Origin: Dehalococcoidia bacterium
GTDB lineage: Bacteria > Chloroflexota > Dehalococcoidia > Lucifugimonadales > Lucifugimonadaceae
Length of the DNA: 64,000 bases
NCBI GenBank assembly: GCA_965220275.1
Contig: CBDCPN010000019.1
Location: forward strand, 89,036 to 153,035
Direction: 5' to 3'
Shown here: positions 8,737 through 48,119 of the stretch, piece by piece
Numbering within the stretch: the stretch's first letter is position 1
Layout of the letters: each line of letters opens with the position of its first letter
Notes under the pieces: model-generated
What the model saw: the letters and a program-made list of their open reading frames with translations, nothing else
Told to the model about the DNA's origin: nothing
Databases searched by the model: none
Program-made: the position numbers and the translations under genes

Positions 8737-8827
8737 GCTTCCGCTCCGCGGTCGACATTGGAGTAACTATGCAAGGGCATTTTCACGCATAATGCCACGG
8801 TCGGGCGCAGCCAATATTGATAAAGGA

Positions 8828-10959: not shown

Positions 10960-11001
10960 CCCACTTCGGACATGGACGCATAGAGACCGGGGACTTTGGT
11001 C

Positions 11002-19408: not shown

Positions 19409-19484
<76 letters not shown>

Positions 19485-19630: not shown

Positions 19631-20779
19631 ATGGTCGAGTGGCTTGGGATTGAGCACCTGTTCGAGCTTTCCACGGGAGATAAGGTCGCCGCCCTATTCA
19701 CCCCCCTCATAATCTTCATCGCCCTCTCGATCGCGACGGTGCTCCTGCCCGGCAAGTGGGTCCCCGGATACGCCACCGACGAAAGAACCGGCGAGCCCCG
19801 CAGGTACCGGCTCAACGGCCTCCTCGTCTTCGTCATCGCCAATCTCATCTGGGGCTTCGAGGTCATCCCAGGTCTGGGGCGCGATTGGTTCTACCGCACT
19901 TCGCTCTACGCAGTCGCCGGCGGCACCGGCTTCGCAGTGCTCTTCACGGCCATCGCCGTCTACACCCAGCCGAAGACCAGGGACCGCAACCCCTTTGTCG
20001 ACTTCTACGTGGGCCGCGTCCAGGAGATCCGCTTCTTCAACGACCGCCTCGACCTCAAGATGACCTTTTACGTTGTGGGCAGCACGATGCTCGGCATCAA
20101 TGCCATGTCGGGCGCGGCCTGGCACTACGAGCAGTTCAGCCCCACCAACGAAGTCAACCCCGGCGTCTTCGTCTACGCCGCCATTTTCACCTTCTACGTG
20201 TTCGACGACCACATCTTCGAGCGCGTCCGGCTCTACACCTATGACCTCATCCACGAGCGGATGGGCTTCAAGATGTTCTGGGGCGACAACATCGCCTACG
20301 GCTGGCTCTACATCCTCCCCCTGTACGGCATGGCCGCCTACCCCGACCCCGGCTTCTCGACCGCCTGGACCTACGTCTGGATCATCGGCGCCTCCGCCCT
20401 GTTCCTTGTCGGATGGGGCATAGCCCGGGGCGCCAACATCCAGAAGTACACCTTCAAGCGCTGGCCTGAACGCAAGTTCCTCGGGATCATCGAGCCCCGC
20501 TACATCCAGGCCGGCGACCGCAAGATCCTGACCAGCGGTTTCTGGGGCGTCGCCCGCCACTTCAACTACATGGGCGAGTTCCTCTTCGCCGTGGCGGTGG
20601 GCCTCTCCTTCGGATATTTTGGCGTCGCCTGGTCGTGGGCCTACCTGGCCTTCGCCGTCTGGTTGTTCACCTCGCGCCAGCGGCAGGACGACGTGGCCTG
20701 CGCCGAGAAGTACGGCCAGGAGAAGTGGGCCGAGTACCAGGAGAAGGTGCCGTACCGCATCATCCCCGGCATCTATTGA
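19631..20779 (+). CDS. ERG4/ERG24-family sterol reductase homologue (polytopic membrane NADPH reductase)
   Basis: 382-aa multi-TM protein. The C-terminus SGFWGVARHFNYMGEFLF ... SRQRQDDVACAEKYGQEKWAEYQEKVPYRIIPGIY matches the sterol reductase signature (..R..RD...C..KYG..W..Y...VPYR..P.IY), with a one-residue insertion. Confidence 0.8.
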   Translation: MVEWLGIEHLFELSTGDKVAALFTPLIIFIALSIATVLLPGKWVPGYATDERTGEPRRYRLNGLLVFVIANLIWGFEVIPGLGRDWFYRTSLYAVAGGTGFAVLFTAIAVYTQPKTRDRNPFVDFYVGRVQEIRFFNDRLDLKMTFYVVGSTMLGINAMSGAAWHYEQFSPTNEVNPGVFVYAAIFTFYVFDDHIFERVRLYTYDLIHERMGFKMFWGDNIAYGWLYILPLYGMAAYPDPGFSTAWTYVWIIGASALFLVGWGIARGANIQKYTFKRWPERKFLGIIEPRYIQAGDRKILTSGFWGVARHFNYMGEFLFAVAVGLSFGYFGVAWSWAYLAFAVWLFTSRQRQDDVACAEKYGQEKWAEYQEKVPYRIIPGIY

Positions 20780-21204
20780 TGCTGGCGGAGCCTGCGCCTG
20801 CGTTCGGGGCTAGTCCGTTTCCGCGCACGTCAGCAGGGGCTGGAGGTCGCCGACGACGAGGCGCGAGCGATGCTCGCCGAGCGTCGGGTGTTGCTGGACC
20901 GCGCGTAGACTGTCGCTGCCTTCGCCAAGGAGATGAGCGAGTTCCGGCAAACGAGCGCGACCACCGAGACGCGGGCGTTCGTGCGCTACTTCGTGAAGAA
21001 GATCATGGTCATCCCCGGCGCCGCTTCTATTCGCAACACGGCGCCTTTGCCGGACGACAGTCTTTTGGCCGGCCGGGCCAGCAAGATGTTAACCCTTGAA
21101 ACCTCGGTCCTGTCTACTGTCCACGTCGGTCCACGATCACTCCTCGCACTGCTATGTCTAAGGTCAGGCGTCCAGACGAAAATTTGAGCCTCTGCCTGGA
21201 ACTA

Positions 21205-22191
21205 CTACGCGCAAGCCGGGTCGTCGGCAGACCAGCGGTTGTAAGCGGGATCGTTTTCGCGGGCTAATCGCTCACGGGCCTGCCTCCAATCCTCTGCCCA
21301 CGCTTCGGCGTTGTGAAGCTCCGACTCCGGGTGTTCCCTGCTACGCGCAACGAACCCGGGGAATGCCGCTCTGCCTGTGTGTTGGCCAACGGGGTTGTAT
21401 CGCAGGTCCAGGCTCCACCTGATCCGGTTGCTGTTGTTCGGCAGCGAACCGTGACAGGTCAGCCGGTGCATAAATAGCGCGCTCCCTCGTCGCATCGGCA
21501 CTGGAATTGCGTCTCGGATTCGGAAGAGTTCATCCGGTATTTGCAGTCCGGACGGGGAGGTCGCCGTCCCTCCCGGGCAATGCTGGAACAGCCCTTCGGC
21601 GTGGCTTCGCGGCACCAGGTGGAGGCAACCGGCTTCCTCGTCAGCATCCCAGACGGGAATCCAGACCGTCAGTATGTCGGTATCGTCCGCCTCCTCAGTC
21701 ACGACTCCCCCGTCCTGGTGCCACGGCGTCGCGCCCAACTGGACTCCGCCTGTCTCAGGATTCACTGGGGTGAGCGCCTCGGGCGGCTTGAGACGTACGT
21801 GTTGCGTCGGGTTCGAGTAGATCTCAGGCCCGATGATCGACTCCACCGCGTCCAACAATGGCGAGGCGGTCAGGACGTCGAACACCGCCGGCCCATGCCA
21901 CATCGGGGTGTTGTACATGACGTTCCTTTGAGGCAAAGAAAAGTCGAAGTACTGGGCGTGCACCTTGCCGCTTTCCTGGTAGATCCTGGTCAGGCGCTCT
22001 CCGAACTCCATCCCATCGTACGTCGATGCGATCGCACCTTCTTCGAGTAACTCACAGGCAAGGTTATCCAGTACTTTTCCGTATTCCGCCTCAAGCGGAT
22101 CGAGAACCTCGTCAGGGTCGATCACGTCTTCGACCACCACGTAACCTTCCCGCTGAAAATGGTTCAGTTGTTCATCATTGAGCCGTGTCAT
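21205..22191 (-). CDS. Phytanoyl-CoA dioxygenase (PhyH)-family Fe(II)/2-oxoglutarate oxygenase
   Basis: N-terminal LNDEQLNHFQREGYVVVEDV, the WHQDG facial-triad HxD, and a distal His in CHGSLPN. Transcribed divergently from the PKS. Confidence 0.85.
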   Translation of the reverse strand: MTRLNDEQLNHFQREGYVVVEDVIDPDEVLDPLEAEYGKVLDNLACELLEEGAIASTYDGMEFGERLTRIYQESGKVHAQYFDFSLPQRNVMYNTPMWHGPAVFDVLTASPLLDAVESIIGPEIYSNPTQHVRLKPPEALTPVNPETGGVQLGATPWHQDGGVVTEEADDTDILTVWIPVWDADEEAGCLHLVPRSHAEGLFQHCPGGTATSPSGLQIPDELFRIRDAIPVPMRRGSALFMHRLTCHGSLPNNSNRIRWSLDLRYNPVGQHTGRAAFPGFVARSREHPESELHNAEAWAEDWRQARERLARENDPAYNRWSADDPACA

Positions 22192-22506
22192 GCAACTACG
22201 TCCTCAGTCAAAAATCCGTGATGTCGGGTCAGCATAGACCACGTTCGAAATCCTAGTAATACAACTCGGCCGATGTCAACGACATGTACTTGCCCGCTGC
22301 GTTGGCCCCAGCCAAACGAATAGTCGCCTCGGCTGCCTGGATGCGGAGCCGGGACCGGTGAGCCCCTCGCCTAATACGCCATAGGCGATGGCGTACACAT
22401 CCCAATTGGGCGAACCAACGAAAAACCCGAATGAGAACATCGTAATGACGGAATACAATTGAGAAGGTGTTGCTGAGAAGATGTCGCATCCGAAGAGAAG
22501 GACGTT

Positions 22507-25500
22507 ATGAAGATGGATGAACGGCTCGGTTCGCAGTCCGGCGAGCCCATCGCAATCGTGGGCATGGCGTGCAGGTTCCCGGGTGCGCCCGATGTAGACG
22601 CCTTCTGGCGCCTGCTTGAACGGGGTGAAAACGCGATTACCGAAGGCGTTCCCGGCTCAGGCGTCGGACGAATAGGTGAGTTTTACTCGGAGTCGGATAT
22701 TCAAAACGACGCCTCGCGGTTCGGGGCGTTCATCGATGGGATCGACCAATTTGATGCGGAGTTCTTCCGCATTTCGCCTGTCGAGGCTCAATTGCTGGAT
22801 CCTCAGCAGCGGCTGATGTTGGAAACGAGCTGGCAGGCCCTTGAGGACGCCGGTATTGACCCGGAGCGGCTGAAGGGTAGCCGCTCCGGGGTCTACATCG
22901 GCATCAGCAACATGGATTACCGCTTCATAAACATGGAATCCAGCCAGACCTCCGAGCCCGCCGCCAACCTCTACACGGTGAGCGGGACCTCCCTTAACAC
23001 CGCCGCCGGTCGGGTCGCCTTCGCCCTCGGACTTGAGGGTCCTGCAATGGCGGTGGACACCGCCTGTTCGTCCTCGCTGGTTGCGATCCACCAGTCCGTT
23101 TCGGCCCTGCAGCGGGGCGAGGCGAATCTGATCCTGGCCGGTGGGGTACAGGTAATTCTCTCCGGCCGGCTGACGGAGTTCCGCGCCAACGCCCGAATGT
23201 TATCGCCGGATGGCCAATGCAAGGCGTTCGACGCTTCAGCCAACGGTTTTGTTCGAGGCGAGGGCTGCGGCTTAGTGGTATTGAAGAGGCTCAGCGACGC
23301 GGAGGCTGACGGCGACCGAATCTGGAGCGTGATCCTTGGCTCCGCGCTCAACCAGGACGGGACCAGCACCGGACTCACGGTACCCAATGAACGGGCCCAG
23401 GCCGGCGTGATCGCCGACGCATTGGATCGCGCCGGTGTCGCTCCGTCTGAAGTGGACTACCTGGAAGCCCACGGCACGGGCACGGAGGTAGGCGACCCTA
23501 TCGAACTGAATGCCGCCGCGGCAGTGTACGGCGAAGGCAGGAATCCTGACCGCCCCCTGTTGGTCGGCTCCGTAAAAACGAATATCGGACACCTCGAGCC
23601 AACGGCCGGAGTCGCCGGTCTGATGAAGACTGTACTGTCGATTCAGAACCGGCAGATTCCCAAGCACCTGCACTTCCGGGACCCGAACCCGCGCCTGGAC
23701 TGGGACCGGCTGCCGGTAAAAATAGCCTCGGAACTGACCGAGTGGCCAGCCAGACCGGATCGTCCTCCGCGGGCGGGCATAAGCGCCTACGGGTGGTCGG
23801 GTACGAACGCCCACGTCATCGTCGAAGGTTACGGAGAGCCTGCCAACGGCTCCAACGCCGGTCGGGTTCCGTCGCGTCCCGTGGGCATCGCCCGAGCCGT
23901 TTCAGCCCCCCTGCAGGATTCGCCCAGCCGGGGAGAGTCGAATGGAGTCTGCATAGGAAGGCCTGCGAGGCTTCTACCTCTCTCGGCCAAGTCGAACGAA
24001 GCGCTGCAAGAGTTGTCGGGCCACTACCTTTCCTGGTTGGATGGGGGAACCGGAGAGTTCTCCCAAAACGGGTCTGTTGCGGGCCCGGACCTGGCAGACA
24101 TGGCCTGGACCGCAGGCGAAGGACGCAGCCACTTCGATTTCCGGGCCGGCGTGGTGTTCCGGGACATCGGTTCCCTGCGCGCCAACCTTGCTGAACTGGC
24201 GGCGTCGGATGATCCGCCGGAGATTCGCAAGGCATCGAAGGTGGCCTTTGCGTACACCGGCCAGGGCGTCCAGTGGCTGGGTATGGGAGAAGCCTTGTAC
24301 CAGTCCGAACCGGTGGCCCGCGCCGTGTTGGACCGTTGCGACCAGTTGATGCGTGAGGAGCGGGGAGCATCCCTGCTGGACGTGATGTTCGGCCGGCCCG
24401 AAGCGGCTGGCGATCTGGACGAACCGGCTTGGACACAACCGGCCGTATATGCCTTGGAATGTGCCCTTACCGCCCTATGGGCCAGCGTCGGAATCCGGCC
24501 GGACGTGGTGGTAGGCCACAGCCTTGGTGAAATCGCTGCGGCGCACACGGCAGGCGTGTTCTCCCTCGAAGACGGTCTACGGTTTGCCTGCACCCGTGGC
24601 GAATTGTTGGGATCTCTGCCGAGGGCCGGCGCCATGGCTGCGGTTTTCGCCCCGGCGAGCCGCGTATCTGAGGCAGTCGACGAATGGAATGAAGCCCACG
24701 CCGGCGCAGACATTTGTGTAGCCGTCGACAACGGTATGCACCAGGTGGTCAGTGGTCCCAAAGAGGAAGTCCACGCCTTTTCGGAGCATCTGGAGGCGTC
24801 CGCCGTAAACGTGACCCGCTTGCGGCCCAGCCCCGCCTACCACAGCCCGCTGGTAGAACCGGCTCTGGACGATTTGGAATCGTTTTTCTCTCACATCACG
24901 ATCAACCCCCCTGCCCTATCCCTGATCAGCAACATGACCGGCGGCGTCATGGGACCCGACGAAGCCCAGGATGGCCCCTACTGGCGACGCCACGCGCGTG
25001 AACCCGTGGCATTCCGCGATTGCGTGGCGACCCTGGCCGAATTGGGAGTGGACGCGGTAGTCGAGCTTGGCCCCCATCGCGTACTCGGCCCGCTTGTGTC
25101 CATGAACTGGCCGGAGGACGCAGGAAACGCCCAGCCCCCCGTCGTACTGCAAAGCCTTTTGCGCCCCTCCTTCGATGGGTCAGAACCCGAACGGGCCGAC
25201 GCCTTCGTACAGGCAGTGGCGGGCGCCTACGAAGCGGGCCTGCCCGTCTCCTTTGCCGGCCTGTTCGCCGGGGAGACCCGGCGACGGGTTGGTTTGCCGG
25301 GCTACCCGTTCCAGAGACGGCGGCACTGGGTAAAGCTGTCCGGGCGACGCCATCGCGCCGACGCCCATCCCCTGCTGGGTGTCCGGCACGAGTCACCGCG
25401 CGGTGAGATGATGTTCGAAACGGAGATGTCTCCTTTCGACCCGGACTGGCTTGACGATCATCGGGTTTACGGCCGGGTTGTCATGCCCGGCGCAGTCTAC

Positions 25501-28500
25501 GGCGCCATGGCAGCCTCGGTGTCCCTGGCCGACGGGACTGGTCCGGCGGTCGTCGAAGACTTGCAGTTGCACAACCCGCTGGTCTTCCCTGAGCAGGACG
25601 AAGAGAGCGAGTCTGACCCCCCAACACGACGGATGCAGTTAGTGCTGGATCCCTCCGAAAACAACCGACCACGCCATTTCGAAGTTTTCAGCAAAGGGGA
25701 GACTGAAGAGGCCTGGACCCTCCATGCGGAGGGAAGTTTGGCATCGAACGCGGCTAGATCGGGCAGTCAACAAGAGACTGACCTGGAAGCCTTGAAGGCA
25801 GGATTGCAACGGCAAGACCTGCGCGCCTACTACCAGGCCAAGGCGTCGACCGGTATCGACTTTGGCCCGCGTTTGCTTTCCCTGGAAGCCCTGTGGGGAC
25901 GCTCCGGCGAGGCGGTCGGCGATGTCGTCCTGCAGGACACCGGGGAAGGAATCGGGTCGTGGGTACACCCGTTGCTATTGGACGGCTGTTTCCAGGTACT
26001 TTCGGCGGCACGAGACCTGGCCGGCATGGGGTCAGGCGCAACCTACTTGCCTTTCGCCTGGGAGCGCCTGTCAGTGAACGGCCCGCTACCTGAGCGGTTG
26101 GTGTGCCATGCCCGAATGAGGGAAGTCGGTGGGGCAGCAGGCTCTGAACCCGCATCTTCTGAACAGCCGGAAACCCTGACCGGTGACCTGTGGTTCTACG
26201 ATTCAGAGGGAACTGCGCTTGGCGAATTGTCGGGGTTCATCGTAAAACGGGCGACGCGTGCTGCACTCCTATCCGCATCAGCGGGGTTGCAGGACATGCT
26301 CTACGAGACAGTCTGGCGGGAAAGCCCACTGCTAGACCGGTTGCAACCCGCCGACGCTCTTGCCGCACCGTCCACTGTCGCCACAGCCACCGGCACGTTT
26401 GGCGATTACCTTGCCCGCGAGGGAGTATCCCCGGAAGAGAGATCTGCTCTACTGGACGACCTCGAGCGGTTGTCTCGCGCCTACGCGCTCGCAGCCATGG
26501 ACCGGCTTGGCTGGGAGCGCCGACCGGGAGCGACTGTAGACCCTGAGTCACTGCGAGAACAGTTGAAGGTCCTCCCCGAACATTCAATATTGCTGGAGAG
26601 AATTCTGCGCCTGATGGCCGACGCGGGAATCCTGGACAGGGTCGGCGGAAATTACCTGGTCAAGATAGGCTCTGGAGACCCCCTGCCCGACAACACGCTG
26701 GCCGACCCCGATGCATTCAACGACCAGTTGACCGTGCAGCACCCCCACGGCTCCGTAGAGCTAGGGCTGTTGCGCAGAAGCGGAGGCGCGCTGGCCCCGG
26801 TGCTCCAGGGAGATACAGACCCCCTGTCCATCCTGTTCCCAAGGGAGGGGCCCGGCATTGCGGACTACTACTTCACCGCCCCAGCGTCTCGGGCTACAAA
26901 CCAGTTGCTGGGTGATGCCGTGGCTTCGGCCGTGGCCAACTGGCCGGAAGACCGGCCGTTGCGAATTCTGGAGGTGGGCGCCGGCACCGGGTCTGGTACT
27001 TCCGTAGTTTTGCCTGAACTGCAGCCCGGTAACTTCACTTACATGTTCACCGATATTTCGGCAGGGTTTTTCGCTGAAGCCGAGAACAGGTTTGGCGATT
27101 CGGAAGCCCCGCTGGAATACCGTGCCCTGGACATCGAGCGAAACCCCTGTGACCAGGGCTTTGATCTGCATGCCTATGACCTGGTTATCGCCGTCAATGT
27201 GCTGCATGCCACCCGAAACCTTGGAGAGACGCTGGCCAACTGCCGTGAGTTGATGGCGCCTTCGGGAAAGCTGATCGCGGTGGAAAACTTGCGGGGCCGG
27301 GGCTGGCAGGACATGGTGTTCGGGCAACTGGACGGCTGGTGGAGGTTCTCGGACGAATATCGCCCAGATCACGCACTCGCGTCGCCGCAGGTATGGCGGC
27401 GAGCCCTGGCCGATACCGGATTCGTGGAGTCGGCCGTCCTGGGAGGGGAGGCAGGGACAGACGAGAGGCCGATGGGGTCCGGAGTCGTCCTGGCCGAAGG
27501 GCCGCCTGAAGTCACGTGGCCGGCAGGGGCATGGGTGGTGGCCGGCGGCGGGGACAACGTTCCTGGAGAACTGGCGTCAGCCTTGGCGGACAAAAACCAG
27601 GCCGTAGTGCTGGCCGTCGCCGCAGCAGAAACCGGTAGAACTGCTGCCCCGGCGGGAATTCAGTGCGTGACAGTGGACCCGGACGACAGAAATTCCTGGC
27701 TCGACTTGTTGAATGGGCTGCCGGAGGACCTCCCACTGCGGGGCGTGGTGCATTGCTTCGCCACGGGAGGGCACGGAGTACAGGCTACTACGCAGGAAAT
27801 GGCGGAAGATGTCCGAACGGCCGGGCAGTCCGCCTTGACCCTTGCCCAGGCTTTGCAGGATGCAGACGTTTCGCTGGACAGTGGGTTTTGGTTGGTCACG
27901 GAAGGAGCGCAGGCACTGGAGCGGGACTACTTGCGCGAGAGTGCCGGCAATTTGGCCGGAGCCTCCCTGTGGGGACTGGGGAGGGTTGTGGCGCGGGAAG
28001 CAGCACATCTTTGTCCGCGGATGCTGGACCTGGACCCCGCGGATAAAACCCAGACAGATCACCTGGTCAATGAGCTGATGTTCCCCGACCCGGAAACTCA
28101 GGTAGCTTACCGGGACGGTCACCGCCTGGCAGCGCGCCTGGTCCGGAGTGGGTCGGCGAGAACAAGACTGGATTTGCCGGAAGAGCAAACCTGGCGCCTC
28201 ATGCCCGATGCAGAGGGAGCGTTGGAAGGACTGCACGCCGAACCAACGCAGCAACCGGACCTGCAGCCCGGGCAGGTGCGAGTGGAAGTGGAAGCAGCAG
28301 GCGTGAACTTCCTGGACGTGCTGCTCAGCCTCGGTGTCGTTGAATCGGCAGACCCTCGTCTGGGCGAAGAATTCTGCGGGCGGGTAGTGGAGGCGGCCCC
28401 GGACGTAACCGAGTTCGCCGCAGGCGACCGGGTGATCGGACTGGCCTTCGGCACATTTGGTCCAGAGGTCGTAACGCAGGCCGACCTGGTCGCGCCTGCC

Positions 28501-32805: not shown

Positions 32806-32911
32806 GTACGAGCCCCAACGTGAAGGCGTCGGCCGGTTACTTACCTGCACAATCGTTTGCTATGCTAGTCTTCGTTTACCAAAGCCAATCATAATCGGAG
32901 GATTTGCGCAC

Positions 32912-33142
32912 ATGGCCTCGACCGAAGAAAGAGTCCGAAAGCTCGTTAGTGACAACCTGGAAGTAGACTTGCCGTCGGATCTGAACGTCTCCCTTGGTGA
33001 CCTCGGTGTGTCATCCATGGACATCGTCTCATTCGGGAGAGTCGTAGCTAAAGATTTCGACATCTCATTCACTGCCGAGGACTGTGCCAACGTGAATACC
33101 GTTCAGGGTTTGGTAGAGCACATCGACGGTCAGGCTGCCTGA
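32912..33142 (+). CDS. Discrete acyl carrier protein (ACP-A)
   Basis: 76 aa with an LGVSSMD phosphopantetheine attachment motif. GGAGGA lies 9 nt upstream of the ATG at 32912. The ORF-track extension back to 32699 overlaps the end of the PKS gene and was discarded. Confidence 0.85.
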   Translation: MASTEERVRKLVSDNLEVDLPSDLNVSLGDLGVSSMDIVSFGRVVAKDFDISFTAEDCANVNTVQGLVEHIDGQAA

Positions 33143-33172
33143 CTCAGCCCTCCACCGGGCGCCCGACATACA

Positions 33173-33883: not shown

Positions 33884-33899
33884 TCGTCTTCTGCATTAG

Positions 33900-34856: not shown

Positions 34857-34916
34857 GCGACCACTACCCGGACTGACGCCCGGGACCGACAGCGTCTCCG
34901 GGCCGCTTCGGCTGGG

Positions 34917-36344: not shown

Positions 36345-36613
36345 ATACAGCGGCCCACCCTGCGGCCCGTGGTGAACCTCAGACCGCATCTTTGTATCGC
36401 GGAATACGTGCAGTCGTGCCGCCTTGCATCGCGAATGAACGAACACTCACACTCCCGTATACGCGGTGAAGCGGACGCGACGTTGACGCGCGACGACGGC
36501 GAACAGGCATACCCTGCGCGTTTCCCGAAATTCATCCACCCGTCAGTCAAAACTCCATAAGTTACAATTAATTCAGTTACGGCACGCGGGCTCGTTCCAC
36601 GCATTGAGACCGA

Positions 36614-38668: not shown

Positions 38669-38711
38669 TGTGCTGAGGGCAGCCCGTCAGGCCGGGCAAT
38701 AAGCAGACTGC

Positions 38712-39749
38712 CTAATGGGGCTTGCGGGCCAGGAAACAATATAACGGCGTGAAGACCCCGGCCCTGCCGCCCGCAACATAGGCGTTGGCGGTACGGTCCA
38801 GCAATCTGACAACGTCTGCGGAGCCATTAGGGAACACCCCCAGTTTTTCGGCCAGCCTGGTCGCGCCAATGATCGCCTTGCGGCCCAGCGGAATCCTGCG
38901 AAGTGCGTTGCCCAGCGTTCCGTGCCTGGTCTCCATGGGCTGGTACCACGGCGTGGTCGGGCCGTTCTCCCCTATCGCCCGGTCAATCCCCTCGATCACC
39001 TCAAATCCCACCGATTCGAGCGCCCGGTTCACCTCGCCCGTTGTCGCAATGTCCTTGAGGGCGATGCCTTGCATCAGATCACGCTTGATGACGCGGTGCC
39101 GGTTATCGTCGGGATCGAACTTGTCCGTCATGCACATTTCCTGACCCCAGAAGAGGGCTCCCGGTTTCAGCACGCGGTAGATTTCGGCAAACGCTGCCAT
39201 CTTGTCCGGTGCATGGCAAGTCGATTCGATCGCGTAACCCCTGTCGAACGTGTCGTCCGTGACGGCGTCCATGTCCGTGAAGCTGCACGCGAGGTAATCG
39301 ATCATGTGGTCGAGCCCCGCTTCGGCATTCAACGATTTCGCCTTTTCCAGCTGGACTTCACTGTTGTTTACCCCGACGACCCTGACACCGGACTCTCGGG
39401 CCACACGACGCATCGGGCCACCGATCCCGCATCCGACGTCCACTACTGTCATGCCCTTCCGCAACTCCAGCTTGCCGATCATCAGCCGCTGATGCCGAAT
39501 CTTGGATTCTGCCAGGGTCTCCCCGGGCGATAACGGCGCAAAGTGCAGGGACTCGCCCCAACCGAACACCATGAAATCGCTGCAGAGGTCGTAATACTCC
39601 TTGACGGTTTCGGTGTGGTCATAGCCTCTCGCACCACCATCTTCCGCGGACGCTCTCTCTATCCAACCGTCGTATCGTTGGACTCGACCGGAAACGTCCG
39701 ACCCGCGGTATGCGGCCTTCAGGCCGTTGTACAGTTCACGAATTTGCAT
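38712..39749 (-). CDS. Sterol 24-C-methyltransferase (ERG6/SMT)-like SAM-dependent methyltransferase
   Basis: Aligns by eye along its whole length with yeast ERG6. EYYDLCSDFMVFGWGESLHF matches FYEYGWGSSFHF. VVDVGCGIGGP matches LDVGCGVGGP. YAIESTCHAP matches YAIEATCHAP. The C-terminal tail is VAGGRAGVFTPLYCFLARKP. Confidence 0.85.
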   Translation of the reverse strand: MQIRELYNGLKAAYRGSDVSGRVQRYDGWIERASAEDGGARGYDHTETVKEYYDLCSDFMVFGWGESLHFAPLSPGETLAESKIRHQRLMIGKLELRKGMTVVDVGCGIGGPMRRVARESGVRVVGVNNSEVQLEKAKSLNAEAGLDHMIDYLACSFTDMDAVTDDTFDRGYAIESTCHAPDKMAAFAEIYRVLKPGALFWGQEMCMTDKFDPDDNRHRVIKRDLMQGIALKDIATTGEVNRALESVGFEVIEGIDRAIGENGPTTPWYQPMETRHGTLGNALRRIPLGRKAIIGATRLAEKLGVFPNGSADVVRLLDRTANAYVAGGRAGVFTPLYCFLARKPH

Positions 39750-39989
39750 GAGCGCCCTTCAATTAGACAGAGGCAAGTGGTTTGTTCGCCCGAGCAATGC
39801 ATAGATGAAACCGGACAGAATGCGGAAATCCGTCATCGCGGGCAAAGACATAGTTTGCTCCTCTTATGCCCGGTCTCACGTTTCGCGCCAGGATCGCCGA
39901 CTTGCAGCGACTCTTGCTGTAGCCGATCGACGGAGTTGAGAATATTACTGTCGGCATCACCGGCGATAGCGCACCCAAGTACCGGTTCA

Positions 39990-41063
39990 TCACGCCGTCC
40001 CGTTGGCGTCGCTACGGCCTGGACCATCCCCAATCCGGGGGTCAGGATAAAACTGCGTGCAATAGGCGCGGAAGGGCATGATCTCGCCATCGGAACGGCA
40101 CAGACGCGGACGGGACTCGTAGCGCTTGCTGCGCCAGATAATCTCATCCTGCAGGACATCTGCCTTTTGCATGATTGAGATGAACTTGTTCATCACGGGC
40201 GCGCGTAGCCCGACTGGCAGAAACCCCAACCCTGCTACCCACCGTCTGGGTCCCCGTATCTCCTTGACCTGCGAGACCAGGTTCATGTCGATGAGTGTGC
40301 CATCGACGGGCGTCGCCAGGACCCATAGGCGCATGTCCATCCCGATGGACCGCTCCCTGATCTCTACGAACGAGTAGCCAAGGCCATGGATATGGGCGGT
40401 GGCTGCGACGTCAAAAGTGAGCGACGCAATTTTAGCGATCTTCTGCGTTCTTCTGAAATTGAAGCTGCTCAGGAGGTAGGCGCCGTCCACCGACACTTCA
40501 CTATCCCGGTCCACGCTGTCGTAGCCGTGGACGTAGCGCAAATGGCCCACGTCCACCGAGTTTTCTGTCGTCTCCTGGGGATGTCCCGGAAAGCGGAGAG
40601 TTTTGATCTCGATGTCGCACCACCCCTCCTGGTCGGGAGGGTCTTCCGGCAGGTCCCACTGCGGCTCCCTGCCGTCCATCCCCCACCAGGCAAAGATGAG
40701 ACCGCCAATTTCCCGCGTCGGGAAAACCCTCAACCTCGCTGTCCTGGGCGGTTCGGAGTAAGGCGTGGCGACGCACTGGCCAACCGTGTCGAACTCGTAG
40801 CCGTGGAAGGGACAGACGAGCCGGCCCTGGCATACCTTGCCGCCCGCGTCCGGCCCCATGTCGGCGCCCAGGTGCGGGCAATAGGCCCCGGCCACGCAGA
40901 CTTTTCCGCCATCGTCGATCCAGATGACGGTGTTTTCGCCCATCCAGGTCTTCTGCATGAGCTTGGCCTTCAACAAAGCCTTTCGGCTTTCGACGAAGAA
41001 CCAGCCCTCTGGAAACGGGGATAACGTCTTTGCGTACGTAAATGTCCTACGTCCCGTGGACAT
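39990..41063 (-). CDS. Rieske [2Fe-2S] non-heme-iron oxygenase, KshA/Neverland-like
   Basis: Rieske motif CPHLGADM-x-CPFHGYEF and mononuclear iron motif ENSVDVGHLRYVH (EN..D..H....H). 357 aa. No partner reductase or ferredoxin is adjacent. Confidence 0.85.
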   Translation of the reverse strand: MSTGRRTFTYAKTLSPFPEGWFFVESRKALLKAKLMQKTWMGENTVIWIDDGGKVCVAGAYCPHLGADMGPDAGGKVCQGRLVCPFHGYEFDTVGQCVATPYSEPPRTARLRVFPTREIGGLIFAWWGMDGREPQWDLPEDPPDQEGWCDIEIKTLRFPGHPQETTENSVDVGHLRYVHGYDSVDRDSEVSVDGAYLLSSFNFRRTQKIAKIASLTFDVAATAHIHGLGYSFVEIRERSIGMDMRLWVLATPVDGTLIDMNLVSQVKEIRGPRRWVAGLGFLPVGLRAPVMNKFISIMQKADVLQDEIIWRSKRYESRPRLCRSDGEIMPFRAYCTQFYPDPRIGDGPGRSDANGTA

Positions 41064-41428
41064 TGATCAAGATTCCTTACTTGGGTCTGCAGGCAGCGAC
41101 CGTGCCAGGCAACGCCCGCAAATCACGTGCCTCCCCAACGACTACGATTTCGCGGCGTCAGCGCCTGCAACACAGCCACTGGCTAACATTTTAACTACGG
41201 CTGCGCCCGGCGACCCTCGAAAGGGTCGACCACTTCTCGGTCGAATCGCGATTCTTCCGTAGTACAGTATGCCTCCGGCCTGACCAACTTCTGCATTGCC
41301 CGGTTGGCCGGGGTCAATCTGTGCCGGTCCACCGGTGTTCGTCCCGGGGCATGACGCCCACAACCTCTCCGGCGGGCTGACCAGGTTGTCATGATCGGCC
41401 CGCAAACTCTCATAGAAAGGAATCCGGC

Positions 41429-42271
41429 ATGAATTCGTCGCGAAGACCCGTCGCCGTTGTGGTGGGAGCAACGTCGAAGTGGCAGTCAGACGGGCGTAAC
41501 ACGCACATGATCCACGGCAAGACGCTCGACGATAGCGAACTGCCCGTCGGGGTGCGTTGGGGCGTTGGAGGCGCCGTCGCCCTGAAGTTTGCGTCACAGG
41601 GCTTCTTCACGGTTCTAACCACCCGCAAGGCGTCAAACGCCTCCGCGCTGGCCGAGGGCATACGGCAACAGGGCGGCGAAAGCATGATCGTCGAGATGGA
41701 CCTGGCGTCACGGGACTCCATATCAAATGCGTTCGCCGGGATACGGGAACAGGTCGGCGATCCGCACGCGCTGGTCTACAACGCCGGCTATCTGGAGGGG
41801 CGGGACCTCCCGCCGGAGAAGGAACTGCTGGAGCACATCCCGTACGAAATGTTTGAAACCGCGCACCACATCTCCAGCAGCGGACCGTTCCTGGTAGCCA
41901 AGGAAGTCTTGCCCGCGATGCGGGAGCGGGGAGAAGGCTCCTTCCTGATTTCGAACAACGCGTGGTCTTTGCGTGGCAAGAAGCGGTACACCGGCGAGTC
42001 GTTCTATTACCCGCGGGTGATGATGCGGACGTTGGCACAAGTGTTGACGGAGGAGTACTCCGAGCACGGCGTGCACGTTGCAAATGTGGTTATAGACGGC
42101 ACCATCGATTCACCGGGGACACGAGCCCTCCCGCGATTCCAGGAGCGCCCCGAGTTGCTCATTAATCCCGCCCAAATAGCCGAAGCCTTCTACTATCTCC
42201 ACACGCAGGACAAGTCCTGCTGGACGCACGAAATCCAGTTGACCCCATATTCCACGAAACCCAGTGTCTAG
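41429..42271 (+). CDS. Atypical SDR-like NAD(P)-dependent oxidoreductase
   Basis: Rossmann start VAVVVGATSKW, then an insertion of about 27 aa before GVGGAVALKFA. The region aligned to the catalytic Y-x3-K reads FYYPRVMMR, with no Lys. Transcribed divergently from the Rieske oxygenase gene. Confidence 0.65.
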   Translation: MNSSRRPVAVVVGATSKWQSDGRNTHMIHGKTLDDSELPVGVRWGVGGAVALKFASQGFFTVLTTRKASNASALAEGIRQQGGESMIVEMDLASRDSISNAFAGIREQVGDPHALVYNAGYLEGRDLPPEKELLEHIPYEMFETAHHISSSGPFLVAKEVLPAMRERGEGSFLISNNAWSLRGKKRYTGESFYYPRVMMRTLAQVLTEEYSEHGVHVANVVIDGTIDSPGTRALPRFQERPELLINPAQIAEAFYYLHTQDKSCWTHEIQLTPYSTKPSV

Positions 42272-42397
42272 CTTTCGACGTTCTTTAGCGGCACCGCCCC
42301 TTTTGGTTGTCCTGCGGCCAGCCATGGAACGTGATGTGACTGACGTAGAATGCCGTGACCCCGGACGAATTCTGAGATCGTCCCAGGGTCATCGAAC

Positions 42398-44125
42398 ATG
42401 AACGAGTCAATTCGTTACGAGGCCGAAGAGGCGTGCCCGCCCATGGTGGCCCTGGGAGTCGGACTCCAGGGCGCAATATTCGGGCTCGCGCCACTCGTGC
42501 TCATCGTGGCGATTACCGCCCGGGCCGGAGGTCAAGACGAAAGTTACCTGTCGTGGGCGGTGTTCGCGGCGCTCATCATCGCCGGGTGCCTGACAGCGCT
42601 CCAGGCCAGCCGGATCTGGCGACTTGGAGCCGGGCACATCCTCATCATGGGGGCCACGCCCAATTTCGTCGCGATCTCCGTTCTGGCGTTGACGGCTGGG
42701 GGCCCTGCTTTGCTGTCGAGCCTCATAGTCGTGTCCTCGTTGGCGTATCTCGCGCTCGCATTATGGCTCCCGCTTCTGCGCCGAATCATCACCCCAGTTG
42801 TTTCCGGCACGGTGTTGATGCTGATCGCCGTTTCAGTCCTGCCGGTTGCGCTGGACAGAGTCCAGGAGACTGCCGAAGGCGCGCCCGCCGCCGCCGGCCC
42901 GGTTGTCGCTGCAGTAACGCTGGCGATGATCGTTGGTCTTGCGATGCGTGTCTCCGGGGCCTGGCGGCTCTGGTCGCCGATCATCGGGATTGGAGTCGGC
43001 TGCGTAGTGGCGGCGTTGTTCGGAGCGTATGAGATTCAACGGGTGATCGATGCGCCCTGGTTCGGGACGTCCGGAGCCGGGTTTGCCGGATTCGACCTTA
43101 CGCCCGACGCAAGTTTCTGGGCGCTCCTGCCGGTGTTCGTAGTTGTGATGCTTGTGGGAGGCATCAAGAACATCGGGGACAGCGTCGCGATCCAGCAGGC
43201 CTCGAGGCGCGCACCGAGGGTCACCGACTTTCGCCTGGTACAGAGTTCGCTCAAGACGAATTGGCTGGGCATACTGACGTCCGGCATTGCAGGGACTCCA
43301 CCTACAACCGTCTATTCCTCGTCCAGCGTGTCCCTCGCCAACCTGACCGGAGTCGCAGCGCGTAACGTCGGGTACGTCATCGGCGGCGTATTCATCCTGC
43401 TGGCGTTGTTCCCGAAACTGCCGGCGGTATTGTTGACCATACCCGCCCCCGTCATGGGAGCGTACATACTGATGGCGATCGGCCTGATCTTCGTTGAAGG
43501 CATACGGACGGTCGTCCAGGCCGGACTGGACGCCCAGAAGGTAATGGTGGTCGCTATTGCGTTCTCGTTGGGCGCAGGCATCGAGAATCAGACCATTTTT
43601 GCCGACCTTGTGGGAGGTACGTGGGGCGGACTGCTCGACAACGGCATGCTGGTTGGCGCCCTGGCCGCCATACTGATGACCGTCTTCCTGGACCTGACGA
43701 ACCCCCGCAAAGGAGGTCGCCTGCAGGTCAAGCTGGACGCGACCGCGCTACCCCAGATCGACAAATTCGTCCGTGATCATGCGGCCAGGCTCGGCTGGAA
43801 CCCGGCAGCCACCGAGCGGCTCAGTTCGGCCGCGGAGGAGACGCTCTTGACGCTGGTCCAGGCGGGAGAGGACCGCCCCGGCGATGATGCGCCAAGCCTG
43901 ATAGTCGTCACACGGCCCGACGCGGGACAGGTCGAGATGGAGTTCCTGGCCGTCTTTGACGAAGAAAACCTAGAGGACCGGCTGGCGTACTTGAGCGAAG
44001 AGACGGAGGGGGTGGAGGAGGGCGAAATTTCCCTCCGCCTGCTGCGGCACCACGCATCGTCCGTCCAACACCAGAAGTATTACGGCCTGGACATCGTCAC
44101 CGTGCAGGTCAAGGGCTCGCGTTAA
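42398..44125 (+). CDS. NCS2/SLC23-like (xanthine/uracil/vitamin C permease family) transporter with a soluble C-terminal extension of about 140 aa
   Basis: About 430 aa of polytopic membrane domain with NCS2-like organisation, followed by the hydrophilic tail RLQVKLDATALPQIDKFVRDHAARLGW...VTVQVKGSR. Confidence 0.65.
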   Translation: MNESIRYEAEEACPPMVALGVGLQGAIFGLAPLVLIVAITARAGGQDESYLSWAVFAALIIAGCLTALQASRIWRLGAGHILIMGATPNFVAISVLALTAGGPALLSSLIVVSSLAYLALALWLPLLRRIITPVVSGTVLMLIAVSVLPVALDRVQETAEGAPAAAGPVVAAVTLAMIVGLAMRVSGAWRLWSPIIGIGVGCVVAALFGAYEIQRVIDAPWFGTSGAGFAGFDLTPDASFWALLPVFVVVMLVGGIKNIGDSVAIQQASRRAPRVTDFRLVQSSLKTNWLGILTSGIAGTPPTTVYSSSSVSLANLTGVAARNVGYVIGGVFILLALFPKLPAVLLTIPAPVMGAYILMAIGLIFVEGIRTVVQAGLDAQKVMVVAIAFSLGAGIENQTIFADLVGGTWGGLLDNGMLVGALAAILMTVFLDLTNPRKGGRLQVKLDATALPQIDKFVRDHAARLGWNPAATERLSSAAEETLLTLVQAGEDRPGDDAPSLIVVTRPDAGQVEMEFLAVFDEENLEDRLAYLSEETEGVEEGEISLRLLRHHASSVQHQKYYGLDIVTVQVKGSR

Positions 44126-44364
44126 CCCGGCTCAACGTCAAGGCGGGTTCAAGCAACCGGACCCCACTCGAGGATGTCTCGAACCCGGGGCCGGTCTACC
44201 AATACCCTTACGACACTGCCCATAAAAGTAGTCGCGTCGGTGAATTCTCTTTCCATTTCCTGATGTCTGGTACCAGAATGCCGATCACAATGAATTGACC
44301 CGACTGTTTACTTTGGTATGCTTTCGTTTTGATACTGCAAATCTTTATTGAAGGACTTGCCCAC

Positions 44365-44610
44365 ATGGCATCGAACGCAGACCGAATCCGACAGCTCGTA
44401 GCTGACAACCTTGAAGTGGATGGCCAGCCGGTTAAACTGCCCCCGGACATGGATGTCCCACTGACTGACCTTGGCGTTTCATCCATGGATGTCGTCTCAT
44501 TCGCGAAAGTCGTCTCTAAAGAGTTCGACGTGACGTTCGCTCCCGAAGACTGCGTGAACTTGAAGACCCTCAAGGCCCTGCTCGAACACCTCGATTCCCA
44601 GGCTGCCTGA
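44365..44610 (+). CDS. Discrete acyl carrier protein (ACP-B), paralogue of ACP-A
   Basis: 81 aa with an LGVSSMD motif. Roughly 60% identical by eye to the ACP at 32912-33142. The last ~20 nt before the ATG and a TATGCT...TTCGTTT box are also shared. Confidence 0.8.
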   Translation: MASNADRIRQLVADNLEVDGQPVKLPPDMDVPLTDLGVSSMDVVSFAKVVSKEFDVTFAPEDCVNLKTLKALLEHLDSQAA

Positions 44611-44796
44611 TCCCCTCCGCTCAGCAGCGCCCGTCCGACTCCGCCCACACGAGCAGGCGGAGTCGTTTCATGTGATCACGCGCTGCAGCACACTTTCACG
44701 ACAAACTCATTTTGGGCGTGACCTGCTGGGGTGCAGGCAGGCGCGCGACTCTGACGTGAGCAACGCTGTGGTGCCCCGAGCCATTTGAACGACGGG

Positions 44797-46113
44797 CTAA
44801 ACGACGCCCTCTGCGCGCAGGGCGTGCAATGCCCTCTCGAAGCCGTCGATAGTGTCGTCGATGTCCTGTTCTTCGTGGGCTGCGGACACAATGAAGCCTA
44901 TGCCGCCCATCATGTCTATCCCCTCGTTGAGCATGGCGAGTTTCAGAGGCCCTGACTGTGCCGCGGTCCGCTCGGCCAATACCGAGTGGGGCACAGTGCT
45001 GTTTTCGCCCGGGCCCTCGCTTTCCGCTCCGAGGACGACGTGAATTATTGAAGCGATGCCGTGGACGTGCCCGGTCACCTCGGTCCGCCCCAGCGCGTCA
45101 CGCATGCCTGCCTTCAGCCGTTCGGCCATTGCGTCGGCGCGTTCGTTGACCGGTTCGTTCGCCACCATCTCCAGGCAGGCAATCCCGGCGGTAGCGGACA
45201 ACGGATTCGCAATGAATGTCCCAGGATGCGACATGTAGTTGGAATGATTGCCGGGCGCCAACAGGTCCATGATCTCGGACTTGCCCGCCACCGCTCCGCC
45301 GGGCAAACCGCCCGCCACGATCTTCGCCATAGTGGTCAGGTCAGGCATGATGCCAAATCTGCCCTGGGCCCCTCCCCTTGACAGCCGGAAAGCCGTGATT
45401 ACCTCGTCCATGATCATCACTACGCCGCGGCTGGCGGTGATTTCCCGGACGCTTTCGAGGAATGTGGGGTTGTCGACCGGGAACTGGCCCCAGTGTGCGC
45501 CCGTAGGTTCCATGATCACGGCGGCAATGTCCGGGTCTTCGTCCAGCGCCCGCGCCAGTTCGTCAATGTCCGGCTCGACGACAACAACGGTTGAAAGGGC
45601 TTCTCTAGGGATTCCCACCTGCGTGTTTATGCCCGAGTCCGACGAAACGTAGTCGTGCCAGCCATGGAAGTGCTCACGGAATTTCACTATCTTGTTCTTC
45701 CCGGTAAAGGCGCGGGAAAGGCGGATCGCCAGGAGAGTGGATTCCGTACCCGAAGACGTAAACCGGACTTTTTCGGCAGAAGGGATCAGGCCGCTGACGA
45801 GTTCAGCCCACTGTAGTTCCTGCGGGGTTGCCGCTCCCATGTGGGTACCCTTCGCCAGGCGTTCGCCAAGGGCCTCGTTGATCCTGGGATGTGAATGCCC
45901 CAGGATGAGAGCGCCGTAACCCATCATGAAGTCCACGATCTCGTTTCCGTCCACGTCCCACTTGCGGCCGCCCTCAGCGTGTTCGACATAGACGGGATGC
46001 GGGCGCAGCGGGCGCGACAGGTGCGCTCCGTTGGGGATTACCGAGTAACCCCTTTCGCTCAGCTGTCCAGACGTTCGGAATTTTTCCGCATACCGCTCGA
46101 CTATCGTTGACAT
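44797..46113 (-). CDS. Class III (fold-type I) PLP aminotransferase, glutamate-1-semialdehyde aminomutase-like
   Basis: MDEVITAFRLSRGG and TTMAKIVAGG (PLP Lys) motifs. I set the start at the ATG at 46113 (MSTIVERY), which has GGGAGGG upstream. Confidence 0.88.
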   Translation of the reverse strand: MSTIVERYAEKFRTSGQLSERGYSVIPNGAHLSRPLRPHPVYVEHAEGGRKWDVDGNEIVDFMMGYGALILGHSHPRINEALGERLAKGTHMGAATPQELQWAELVSGLIPSAEKVRFTSSGTESTLLAIRLSRAFTGKNKIVKFREHFHGWHDYVSSDSGINTQVGIPREALSTVVVVEPDIDELARALDEDPDIAAVIMEPTGAHWGQFPVDNPTFLESVREITASRGVVMIMDEVITAFRLSRGGAQGRFGIMPDLTTMAKIVAGGLPGGAVAGKSEIMDLLAPGNHSNYMSHPGTFIANPLSATAGIACLEMVANEPVNERADAMAERLKAGMRDALGRTEVTGHVHGIASIIHVVLGAESEGPGENSTVPHSVLAERTAAQSGPLKLAMLNEGIDMMGGIGFIVSAAHEEQDIDDTIDGFERALHALRAEGVV

Positions 46114-46342
46114 CTTCTTGCCCTCCCGATTGGTCCAGGCGCCAGCATCAAATTGGCGACGGGACTTGGCCACCGGTTATTCGAATGTGCGGCCGGGTTT
46201 GGACCTGGGCCCGAAGCCCTGGTTCGCCCCGGAGTCCCGCCAACTTTAACAGGGGCTGGCCAATCATCGATATCCGCGTGAGTTCAGTCGGACTACACTG
46301 AAGTCGCCTTGGAATATCCATGCCGGTTCGCAACCCACCGGA

Positions 46343-47413
46343 TTGAGGGAGACGCATATGCGAGGCAAGTTGACGGTCGCCGCGATAATGCCGGACGGCA
46401 GGATCGGGTTGGTTGAGGAGGACATTCCCGAGACGACTGACGGTTGCGTACTGCTCGAGGTCAAGAGCTCTCTCGTAAGCCCGGGCACGGAAGTGTCGGG
46501 ATGGCGCGGCCTCGCAAGGAATTACTCCACCGGCGGGTCCGGTGGCCGCCCGACGCCTTTCGGCTACTCGAACGCGGGAGTCGTGGTGGAGACCGGCGCG
46601 GGGGTGAAGGGGTTGAGGTCGGGCGACCGGGTTGCGGCCATCGGAGGTGGTTACGCCAGGCACGCCACCCACGCCCTCGTGCCGCAGAACCTGTGCGTGG
46701 CCTTGCCGGACGGCGTTACCTTCGACCAGGGCGCCTACGCGATGCTCGCAACGACGGCTGTACACGCCCTGCGGCGCGGCGATCCCGGCTTCGGCGAGTT
46801 CTCCTGCGTCGTCGGGCTTGGTCTGCTGGGCCAACTGACGGCCAGGATGTACCAACTCGCCGGAAATTTCGTCATCGGCTGGGATACGATCCCGCAGCGT
46901 AGACGCATAGCTGCCGAATGGGGAATCGACGCCGTGGTTGACCCCGGCCGTGAGGACGAAGCGGATGCGACCCTGGCCTTCACAAGAGGCGGCGGCCTGG
47001 ACTCGGCCGTCGTGGCATTCGGGGGTGACGCGACCGGTGCGGTGGCCCAGTTGACCCGGTGCATGAAGGTCGCGCCGGACGGCCACCAGATGGGCCAGAT
47101 CACGGTGGTCGGCGGCGCGAAGATAGACCTGCCCGCTACTCTTTGGAACGTGGATATTCGGCGGGCGTCGAGGACCGGCCCCGGCTACCATGACGAGGCT
47201 TGGGAGCGCGGCAAAGATTACCCCCCGGTATTCACGCGCTGGACCACGCAGACCAACCTGGAACTGTGCATGAGGCTCATCGGCGAAGGTAAGTTGGATG
47301 TCGACTGCCTCACCACACACCGGGTCCCGCTGGAAAGTGCCGAAGAAGAGATTGCCGCCGTCATCGACGACCCCGACGAAATACTGGGCCTGGTCTTCCA
47401 GATGAACCGTTGA
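46343..47413 (+). CDS. Medium-chain (zinc-type) alcohol dehydrogenase/reductase family protein
   Basis: GroES-like N-terminal domain, then the Rossmann motif VVGLGLLGQL. 356 aa. Confidence 0.7.
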   Translation: MRETHMRGKLTVAAIMPDGRIGLVEEDIPETTDGCVLLEVKSSLVSPGTEVSGWRGLARNYSTGGSGGRPTPFGYSNAGVVVETGAGVKGLRSGDRVAAIGGGYARHATHALVPQNLCVALPDGVTFDQGAYAMLATTAVHALRRGDPGFGEFSCVVGLGLLGQLTARMYQLAGNFVIGWDTIPQRRRIAAEWGIDAVVDPGREDEADATLAFTRGGGLDSAVVAFGGDATGAVAQLTRCMKVAPDGHQMGQITVVGGAKIDLPATLWNVDIRRASRTGPGYHDEAWERGKDYPPVFTRWTTQTNLELCMRLIGEGKLDVDCLTTHRVPLESAEEEIAAVIDDPDEILGLVFQMNR

Positions 47414-47464
47414 CTTCTGGGCCACCCAACGACCCTGCAATCACGAACCTATGGAAACGAACGC

Positions 47465-48115: not shown

Positions 48116-48119
48116 AGAG

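Follow-up and report, generated by a model that had tools for sequence, protein, structure and literature searches.

A conserved sterol-type enzyme cassette with a GPP34–P450 fusion, nested in a Sup-like polyketide synthase unit of a probable sponge-associated Dehalococcoidia genome

The 64-kb stretch of contig CBDCPN010000019.1 analysed here (the window) carries, within about 28 kb, a large type I polyketide synthase (PKS) and, set among its partner genes, homologues of sterol-tailoring enzymes, including a sterol C-methyltransferase (SMT) and a fusion of a GPP34 (GOLPH3-like) domain with a cytochrome P450. The question that the locus raises is whether these genes serve a single biosynthetic pathway, as supposed in an earlier note made from the sequence alone, which suggested a steryl lipid acylated with a polyketide chain as one product, or whether separate modules lie side by side. 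The available evidence is that the region is probably a mosaic of modules in a sponge-associated bacterium, and not one biosynthetic pathway. The source is most likely a sponge-associated member of the Dehalococcoidia, since by blastn the window matches a contig from a Dehalococcoidia metagenome-assembled genome (MAG; contig L001, from DAOUKO01) at 86% nucleotide identity across 14 kb, and since its relatives come from sponge metagenomes. Genes were assigned by listing of open reading frames (ORFs), an ARAGORN tRNA search, Pfam scans, and NCBIfam and PDB comparisons; all of the genes listed in the earlier note are present where it placed them and with the domains that it named, each assignment being backed by Pfam.

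The overall conservation of the sterol-type genes, and the rarity of the PKS beside them, carry much of the argument. In 143 related loci, ORFs were called, grouped into clusters independently of the window and, where the clusters recurred, annotated; neighbours were counted at those 91 SMT loci that have 5 kb or more of flank on either side. The GPP34–P450 fusion lies near the SMT at 67 of the 91, an RND transporter (mostly an 825-residue MMPL protein with Patched-SSD and Sterol-sensing matches) at 60, a KshA-like Rieske oxygenase at 47, and an FAD oxidase at 32, with an LppX/LprAFG-like lipoprotein and an MFS transporter at 17 each, an ERG4/24 reductase at five, and a Sup-type PKS within 10 kb at only three. 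In 55 of 78 loci the P450 gene adjoins the SMT in convergent orientation, and in 49 of 55 the MMPL gene lies directly upstream of the SMT; pairwise identities computed for the SMT correlate with those of its partners (Spearman 0.31-0.51). The co-occurrence of SMT, GPP34–P450, Rieske oxygenase and FAD oxidase across dozens of genomes is not chance.

A comparison with L001 locates where the histories of the two parts diverge. The nucleotide identity of 86% extends over positions 33785-48130, from the hydrolase to the ThuA gene, where synteny with both L001 and a further contig, L026 (OZ220681.1), ends (at ~48130), whereas the PKS, acyl carrier protein (ACP) and phosphopantetheinyl transferase (PPTase) genes are only ~65-68% identical by the same method; the breakpoint, at ~33785, coincides with the 3' end of the PPTase gene. 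Protein identities follow the same pattern, with 61% for the ACP, 56% for the PPTase and ~60% for the part of the PKS present in L001, against 86-96% for the downstream genes, and at L143 the surroundings of a ketosynthase (KS) ~85% identical to that of the window are altogether different. The idea of a single, steryl-polyketide pathway is thus not supported, given this sharp identity break, the three Sup-type PKSs among 91 SMT loci and the occurrence of ERG4/24 genes in unrelated contexts (see below). Recent horizontal transfer of the cassette was considered and rejected, in that the GC content of the cassette tracks that of its host (76 loci, r = 0.80), with a deficit of 1.5 points; as regards insertion scars, the direct and inverted repeats flanking the cassette are only short and at chance level.

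The cassette is anchored by the SMT, which the earlier note had compared with ERG6 and which is a genuine member of that family. It matches Methyltransf_11 (6.7e-18) and Sterol_MT_C (1e-14; 54.8 bits, the cutoff being 21.7), and over residues ~37-344, i.e. nearly its full length, it is 35% identical (1.2e-54) to a cluster with Cladosporium erg6 and 37% identical (3.5e-56) to a Zancudomyces SMT cluster; identity to proteins named 'sterol methyltransferase' from Acidimicrobiia sponge symbionts is 43%, while CFA synthases match only at 1e-13 to 1e-15. In the translation the conserved sterol-binding and S-adenosylmethionine regions read DFMVFGWGESLHF (with the motif GWGESLHF), VVDVGCGIGGP and YAIESTCHAP, to be compared with what we take to be the reference SMT motifs YEYGWG..FHF, LDVGCGVGGP and YAIEATCHAP; the position of yeast Tyr81 is occupied by a Phe. 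A collection of species-representative genomes contains 482 relatives, the best 80 of which are 74-86% identical and come nearly all from Dehalococcoidia/Chloroflexota MAGs, with a few from Alphaproteobacteria, Acidimicrobiia and Thermodesulfobacteriota. Many of the relatives carry bin names that we take to be those of sponge studies, and all 62 of the 62 metagenome SMT loci derive from Petrosia ficiformis, Sarcotragus foetidus or Aplysina aerophoba. Sponge-symbiont SMTs that have been assayed are 35-42% identical to yeast ERG6, and 8 of 10 sponge-metagenome SMT homologues methylated sterols in vitro, the substrates being desmosterol and 24-methylenecholesterol (PMC10070321). By family resemblance, the window SMT is likewise predicted to methylate the delta24 sterol side chain.

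Of the oxidative partners of the SMT, two bear on analogies with known sterol enzymes. In the fusion protein, GPP34 occupies residues 27-229 and the P450 residues 259-665; the latter retains the heme loop YGLGTHMCLG, with the heme Cys, and an ExxR motif, and its relatives are found only in sponge metagenomes or MAGs. It is distant from every solved P450, with CYP51 among the best PDB matches at only ~9e-24, so that a true CYP51 identity is not supported. The I-helix reads VYLGDALS, in which the usual acid-alcohol pair is missing. The Rieske protein has intact motifs for the 2Fe-2S cluster (CPH...CPFH) and the mononuclear iron (DVGHLRYVH); its match to KshA (2e-20) aligns only the N-terminal ~165 residues, and no KshB-type ferredoxin reductase was seen among the annotated ORFs, with small ORFs only partly scanned. 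The earlier note likened the pairing of a Rieske oxygenase with an NAD(P) reductase to bacterial C-4 demethylation by SdmA/SdmB, as reported in Methylococcus, an analogy that fails on both sides: the Rieske protein scores 32 bits, and over its N-terminal part only, against a cutoff of 600 for the SdmA model NF052579, and the neighbouring SDR matches only adh_short and adh_short_C2, is not of the 3beta-HSD type that SdmB represents, and is absent from most related loci, being seen in 2 of 80 (L001 and L026). L033:14687-15973 and seven other loci have an additional Rieske oxygenase (LigXa_C type) a few kb from the SMT cassette. The best solved relative of the FAD oxidase is the amine oxidase LkcE (7e-26). 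The GC content of its gene is 0.553 and that of the P450 gene 0.577, for a window mean of ~0.61.

The transporters that accompany the cassette elsewhere give a further indication of its role. The RND partner at other loci resembles MmpL4/5, HpnN, Patched, Dispatched and NPC1, which are without exception transporters of lipids or sterols, and is often joined by the LppX/LprG-like lipoprotein (examples are the MMPL gene at L082:1068-3545 and the lipoprotein gene at L058:17492-18301). Because an MMPL/SSD transporter, and often such a lipoprotein, go with the cassette, its lipid may be trafficked across the envelope, or so the resemblance of these partners to known proteins suggests. The cassettes of the window, L001 and L026 are without a transporter; homologues of MMPL, LppX and MFS were searched for across the whole window and none was found.

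The PKS unit that surrounds the cassette is of a recognisable kind. Sup (sponge symbiont ubiquitous) PKS clusters, reportedly treated by Fieseler in 2007 and by Hochmuth in 2010, have as reference architecture a single-module methylating, fully reducing PKS with partner genes, and by Pfam the window matches this layout, with its ACP, PPTase, hydrolase and permease. The window PKS thus fits a Sup-like enzyme by architecture, partners and distribution, rather than by a KS phylogeny with SupA references; a search for KS homologues gave thousands of matches, with none named SupA among the matches listed. The 120 KS homologues listed are all of 700 residues or fewer, as against the 3432-residue ORF of the window; public gene calls for these PKSs look fragmented, for which assembly frameshifts or real pseudogenes could be the explanation. 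In the window protein, KS1 has its Cys-His-His triad, and KS2 retains the Cys and both His, with HAVGS in place of the expected HGTGT; the first acyltransferase (AT) domain has the active-site motif GHSLGE, whereas AT2 has GRGTGE in place of GHSxG and is truncated, so is inactive, in agreement with the 'AT0' label that the earlier note gave it.

The permease and the ACP–PPTase–hydrolase trio can be grouped with the PKS on the basis of their linkage in other loci, and of a published permease annotation for SupE of the Aplysina sup cluster (PMC3908369). At L151 a permease orthologue (77% identical) lies directly upstream of a Sup-like PKS of 3469 residues, itself 65% identical to that of the window over 3184 residues, and at L152 a distance of 7 kb separates an 81% orthologue from a homologous trio, whose hydrolase is 64% identical. 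The permease at 42398-44125 is thus likely part of the PKS unit; an 85% identical orthologue at L150 occurs without any PKS component within 10 kb.

The ERG4/24 reductase and the PhyH dioxygenase, at the left edge of the region, appear to belong to neither module. The reductase is a genuine member of its family, as the earlier note had it, with 129 bits to Pfam ERG4_ERG24 (cutoff 27) and only 34 bits to DUF1295, a match to the solved delta14-sterol reductase 4QUV at 1.1e-32 over ~350 residues, and the C-terminal signature LTSGFWGVARHFNYMGEF; delta14 reductases are its best solved relatives, and JGI calls its homologues 'delta14-sterol reductase'. From these results and those for the SMT, neither enzyme falls with the CFA/UbiE methyltransferases or with DUF1295. 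The family is abundant in related genomes (1224 matches at E <= 1e-10), and homologues 92%, 91%, 90%, 87% and 75% identical are found in unrelated surroundings that include neither PhyH nor a PKS, e.g. beside MarR and cobalamin genes, a permease and carbonic anhydrase, or ribosomal protein genes. Since the reductase has such homologues elsewhere, and since PhyH is absent from 80 of 80 related SMT loci at 1e-10, both are best regarded as lineage-specific neighbours, solo genes of kinds that are each common in these genomes. The logic of methylation followed by reduction, which the earlier note had read from the SMT and reductase, receives weak support from five other loci with an ERG4/24 gene within 8 kb of the SMT, including one Chloroflexota sublineage in which one or two such genes lie 5-8 kb from the cassette; the arrangement is, however, rare (5 of 91). 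One neighbourhood, exemplified by L147:8135-12169 and L149:6685-17117, recurs in related genomes: a Xan_ur permease of ~585 residues and a carbonic anhydrase adjoin an ERG4/24 gene or a tandem pair of them, and a 3beta-HSD/epimerase gene and dxr are nearby. L144 has a solo SMT (341 residues, 1702-2727) 8 kb from a 90% identical ERG4/24 (10001-11149), which is followed by an MR_MLE gene, as on the left flank of the window.

What the two modules do, we infer as follows. The PKS unit (22.5-34.9 kb, with the permease at 42.4-44.1 kb) would act as an iterative, single, fully reducing and C-methylating module that builds methyl-branched saturated acyl chains on its own ACP; KS2-AT0 and the discrete ACP would see to a final transfer or extension step, and the hydrolase to release of the product. 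The cassette (34.9-41.1 kb; FAD oxidase, GPP34–P450, SMT and KshA-like Rieske oxygenase) would remodel sterols: the SMT may add methyl groups from S-adenosylmethionine to a side-chain double bond, and the FAD enzyme, P450 and Rieske oxygenase may desaturate or hydroxylate, possibly regenerating olefins for more methylation. The ERG4/24 reductase may saturate the SMT product, its placement here being lineage-specific. No match to an oxidosqualene cyclase, squalene epoxidase or true CYP51 was found by Pfam in the window, where all ORFs of at least 600 residues are assigned to other families, an absence already remarked in the earlier note. The sterol could be host-derived, a source with which the transporter and lipoprotein partners at other loci would accord, or be made by genes elsewhere in the genome; ERG24–CYP51–LSS operons, named 'CSG', have been reported in sponge-associated Dehalococcoidia (PMC9531527).

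Tentatively, then, the cassette may be a sterol uptake and remodelling system of sponge symbionts, with the SSD-type RND transporter as one of its members and captured here in a Sup PKS cluster, in which cycles of methylation and desaturation feed unconventional side chains of sponge sterols, including the precursors of 24-isopropyl and 26-methyl steranes, and in which GPP34 has a role in lipid or sterol handling, alone or beside phagosome evasion. Sterol-type families are represented independently by the SMT, the KshA-like Rieske oxygenase, the P450 (with CYP51 among its best solved matches), the SSD-type RND transporter and ERG4/24.

Several observations weigh against separate modules, or against sterols as the substrates. 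The nesting of the cassette in the PKS unit is kept in three genomes, i.e. those of the window, L001 and L026, and a second, differently oriented PKS–P450 adjacency is present at L006, so that PKS and cassette may yet be functionally coupled. How readily a PKS and an SMT come to be adjacent by chance is a matter of estimate, on which the density of Sup-type PKS genes in these genomes bears, and the limit noted above on the Sup-like assignment counts in the same direction. The enzyme set (a CFA-like methylase fold, a COG2907-like FAD enzyme, a DUF1295-related reductase and an SDR) resembles bacterial operons for fatty-acid methylation and desaturation. Finally, none of the contigs with the SMTs assayed by Brown et al. 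is among the metagenome loci of this SMT clade.

It is unlikely that the cassette acts on a non-sterol olefinic lipid, such as an unsaturated fatty acyl chain, squalene or another triterpenoid, and could so feed the mid-chain methyl-branched fatty acids of these sponges. UfaM/UfaD, BfaA/BfaB and the Botryococcus triterpene methyltransferases are analogies for such a role. The SMT also matches CMAS (4e-18), the FAD enzyme has an amine-oxidase/CrtI-type fold, the ERG4/24 protein also matches DUF1295, and it is from lipid export in mycobacteria that partners of the MMPL and LppX/LprG types are best known. What speaks for sterols instead is the Sterol_MT_C match and full-length 35-37% identity to ERG6, the in vitro sterol methylation by most of the assayed sponge-metagenome homologues (8 of 10; PMC10070321), and the fact that the Rieske oxygenase, P450, RND-SSD transporter and ERG4/24 all have relatives acting on sterols or steroids, so that four or five independent families would have to be explained away.

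We consider it quite unlikely that the whole 28 kb is one cluster, in which a polyketide chain is joined to a tailored sterol, perhaps as the steryl ester of some methyl-branched acid, or the sterol-type enzymes tailor the polyketide. The physical nesting of the cassette, which the hydrolase and permease of the PKS unit enclose, the same arrangement in L001 and L026 and the independent adjacency at L006 all point that way, and the alpha/beta hydrolase could serve as the acyltransferase; but the scarcity of Sup-type PKSs at SMT loci (3 of 91), the separate history of the PKS–ACP–PPTase genes indicated by the break in identity with L001, and the occurrence of close homologues of the KS, ERG4/24 and permease without the other parts argue against it, as does the usual companion of the cassette, which is a lipid transporter and not a PKS. 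More generally, modules physically nested in the mosaic genomes of symbionts need not share one pathway. Very unlikely, lastly, is a GPP34–P450 that is a host-directed effector with functionally unrelated neighbours, binding phosphatidylinositol 4-phosphate (PI4P) and aiding escape from phagosome maturation, as proposed from the PI4P binding of eukaryotic GOLPH3 and the restriction of the family to sponge symbionts (PMC11706023), since the domain fused to GPP34 is a catalytic P450 whose heme loop is intact, and since in 55 of 78 loci the gene adjoins the SMT convergently, with Rieske, FAD-oxidase and SSD-transporter genes as further companions; effector and sterol roles are in any case compatible, as modification of host membrane sterols could itself affect phagocytosis.

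The features of the region are collected in Table 1.

Table 1. Features of the region, with positions in the window, strand, and supporting matches or remarks.
Feature	Position	Strand	Support and remarks
tRNA-Met (CAT)	19409-19484	+	ARAGORN; left edge of region
ERG4/ERG24-family sterol reductase homologue, 382 aa, solo gene	19631-20779	+	Pfam ERG4_ERG24 2.5e-37
PhyH-family Fe/2-oxoglutarate dioxygenase	21205-22191	-	Pfam PhyH 9.5e-26; divergent from PKS
Type I PKS, 3432 aa, single ORF, KS-AT-DH-cMT-ER-KR-ACP-KS-AT0	22507-32805	+	Pfam; Sup-like
Discrete ACP	32912-33142	+	PP-binding 5.7e-09; start inferred from translation MASTEERV...
Sfp-type PPTase	33173-33883	+	ACPS + AASDHPPT_N
Alpha/beta hydrolase	33900-34856	+	Abhydrolase_6 4e-11; candidate chain-release enzyme of PKS unit
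FAD amine-oxidase-fold oxidoreductase, cassette member	34917-36344	+	Amino_oxidase 3.4e-16
GPP34 (GOLPH3-like)–cytochrome P450 fusion, cassette member	36614-38668	+	GPP34 7.7e-24; p450 1.6e-37
Sterol C-methyltransferase family protein (SMT), cassette anchor	38712-39749	-	Sterol_MT_C + Methyltransf_11
KshA-like Rieske non-heme iron oxygenase, cassette member	39990-41063	-	Rieske + KshA_C
Classical SDR, lineage-specific	41429-42271	+	adh_short 3.5e-21
NCS2/Xan_ur-type permease, likely in PKS unit (SupE-like)	42398-44125	+	Pfam Xan_ur_permease 1.5e-32
Second discrete ACP	44329-44610	+	PP-binding 5.6e-11
Class III aminotransferase, GSA-aminomutase-like	44797-46173	-	Aminotran_3 4.2e-57; NCBIfam 314 bits, under cutoff 398
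Zn-dependent alcohol dehydrogenase-like	46343-47413	+	ADH_zinc_N + ADH_N; within the span of the earlier note, unlisted there
ThuA-like protein	47465-48115	+	Pfam ThuA; end of block common to L001 and L026

No integrase was seen near the tRNA-Met edge, where no search for a repeat of the tRNA end was made. Beyond the region, the window encodes at 53197-53850 (+) a scramblase protein of 217 residues with a full-length Pfam Scramblase match (2.8e-42), another eukaryote-type lipid-handling protein, and the region is flanked by a pair of phosphotriesterase-family genes (8609-9919 and 54141-55193) and a pair of MR_MLE enolase-superfamily genes (18034-19131 and 49767-50885).

The potential significance of the locus lies partly in the debate over bacterial synthesis of the precursors of 24-isopropylcholestane and 26-methylstigmastane, two compounds that are used as the earliest chemical evidence for animals; an abundant, multi-phylum, sponge-restricted sterol-type cassette provides concrete enzymes to test beyond the SMT. 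The gene context of the GPP34–P450 suggests a different function for a fusion recently highlighted as a signature of sponge symbiosis, and with the window a full Sup-like PKS unit can be assigned to what is probably the genome of a Dehalococcoidia bacterium. The parts of the locus, which had been called a candidate undescribed cluster, are individually known, i.e. the Sup PKSs, the SMTs (PMC10070321), the enrichment of ERG24 and SMT (PMC9531527) and the GPP34–P450 (PMC11706023). In the literature, with incomplete coverage, no description was found of the conserved linkage of GPP34–P450 with SMT, Rieske, FAD-oxidase and SSD-transporter genes, nor of the nesting of the cassette in a Sup-like unit, and a search on GPP34, sponges and sterols returned only an unrelated aegerolysin review. 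What appears to be new, cautiously stated, is the embedding of the sponge-exclusive GPP34–P450 fusion in a sterol-type cassette.

Compared with the Sup systems, which are described as small and monomodular, as extremely diverse and as occurring exclusively in high-microbial-abundance sponges, with mid-chain methyl-branched fatty acids as proposed products and host organisms that were unresolved as of 2014 (PMC4245539), the window is alike in that thousands of diverse homologues of its KS occur in MAGs of typical sponge-symbiont phyla; it differs in the 7.4-kb sterol cassette and SDR that lie between hydrolase and permease. Sterol clusters of sponge symbionts have been described as ERG1-ERG7-ERG11-ERG24-ERG6-sdmA-sdmB (Brown et al. 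2023, PMC10070321), and an enrichment of ERG24, SMT, LSS and CYP51 has been reported for sponge MAGs, those of Dehalococcoidia among them (Kelly et al. 2022, PMC9531527). In common with these systems, the window SMT comes from uncultured sponge symbionts and has a similar identity to ERG6 (35-37% here, 35-42% there), and ERG24-type reductases occur in abundance, at scattered sites, in the same genomes. By contrast, cyclase, epoxidase, true CYP51, SdmA and SdmB are missing from the window, and the SMT is instead found beside a GPP34–P450, a KshA-like Rieske oxygenase and an LkcE-like FAD oxidase.

The Rieske protein has the Rieske and KshA_C fold, with intact iron motifs, in common with KshA; relative to SdmA/SdmB, both an adjacent reductase partner and a 3beta-HSD-type SdmB are lacking. 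Most copies of the cassette have partners like those of the HpnN, Patched/NPC1 and mycobacterial MmpL plus LppX/LprG systems, the window being without both transporter and lipoprotein. Finally, the GPP34–P450 of the window shares with GPP34_L, a fusion described as exclusive to sponge symbionts and proposed to act in evasion of phagocytosis, both its two-domain architecture and its restriction to sponge symbionts; whereas the main text of that work makes no mention of sterols, methyltransferases or MMPL (PMC11706023), the fusion gene here sits within a conserved sterol-type cassette.

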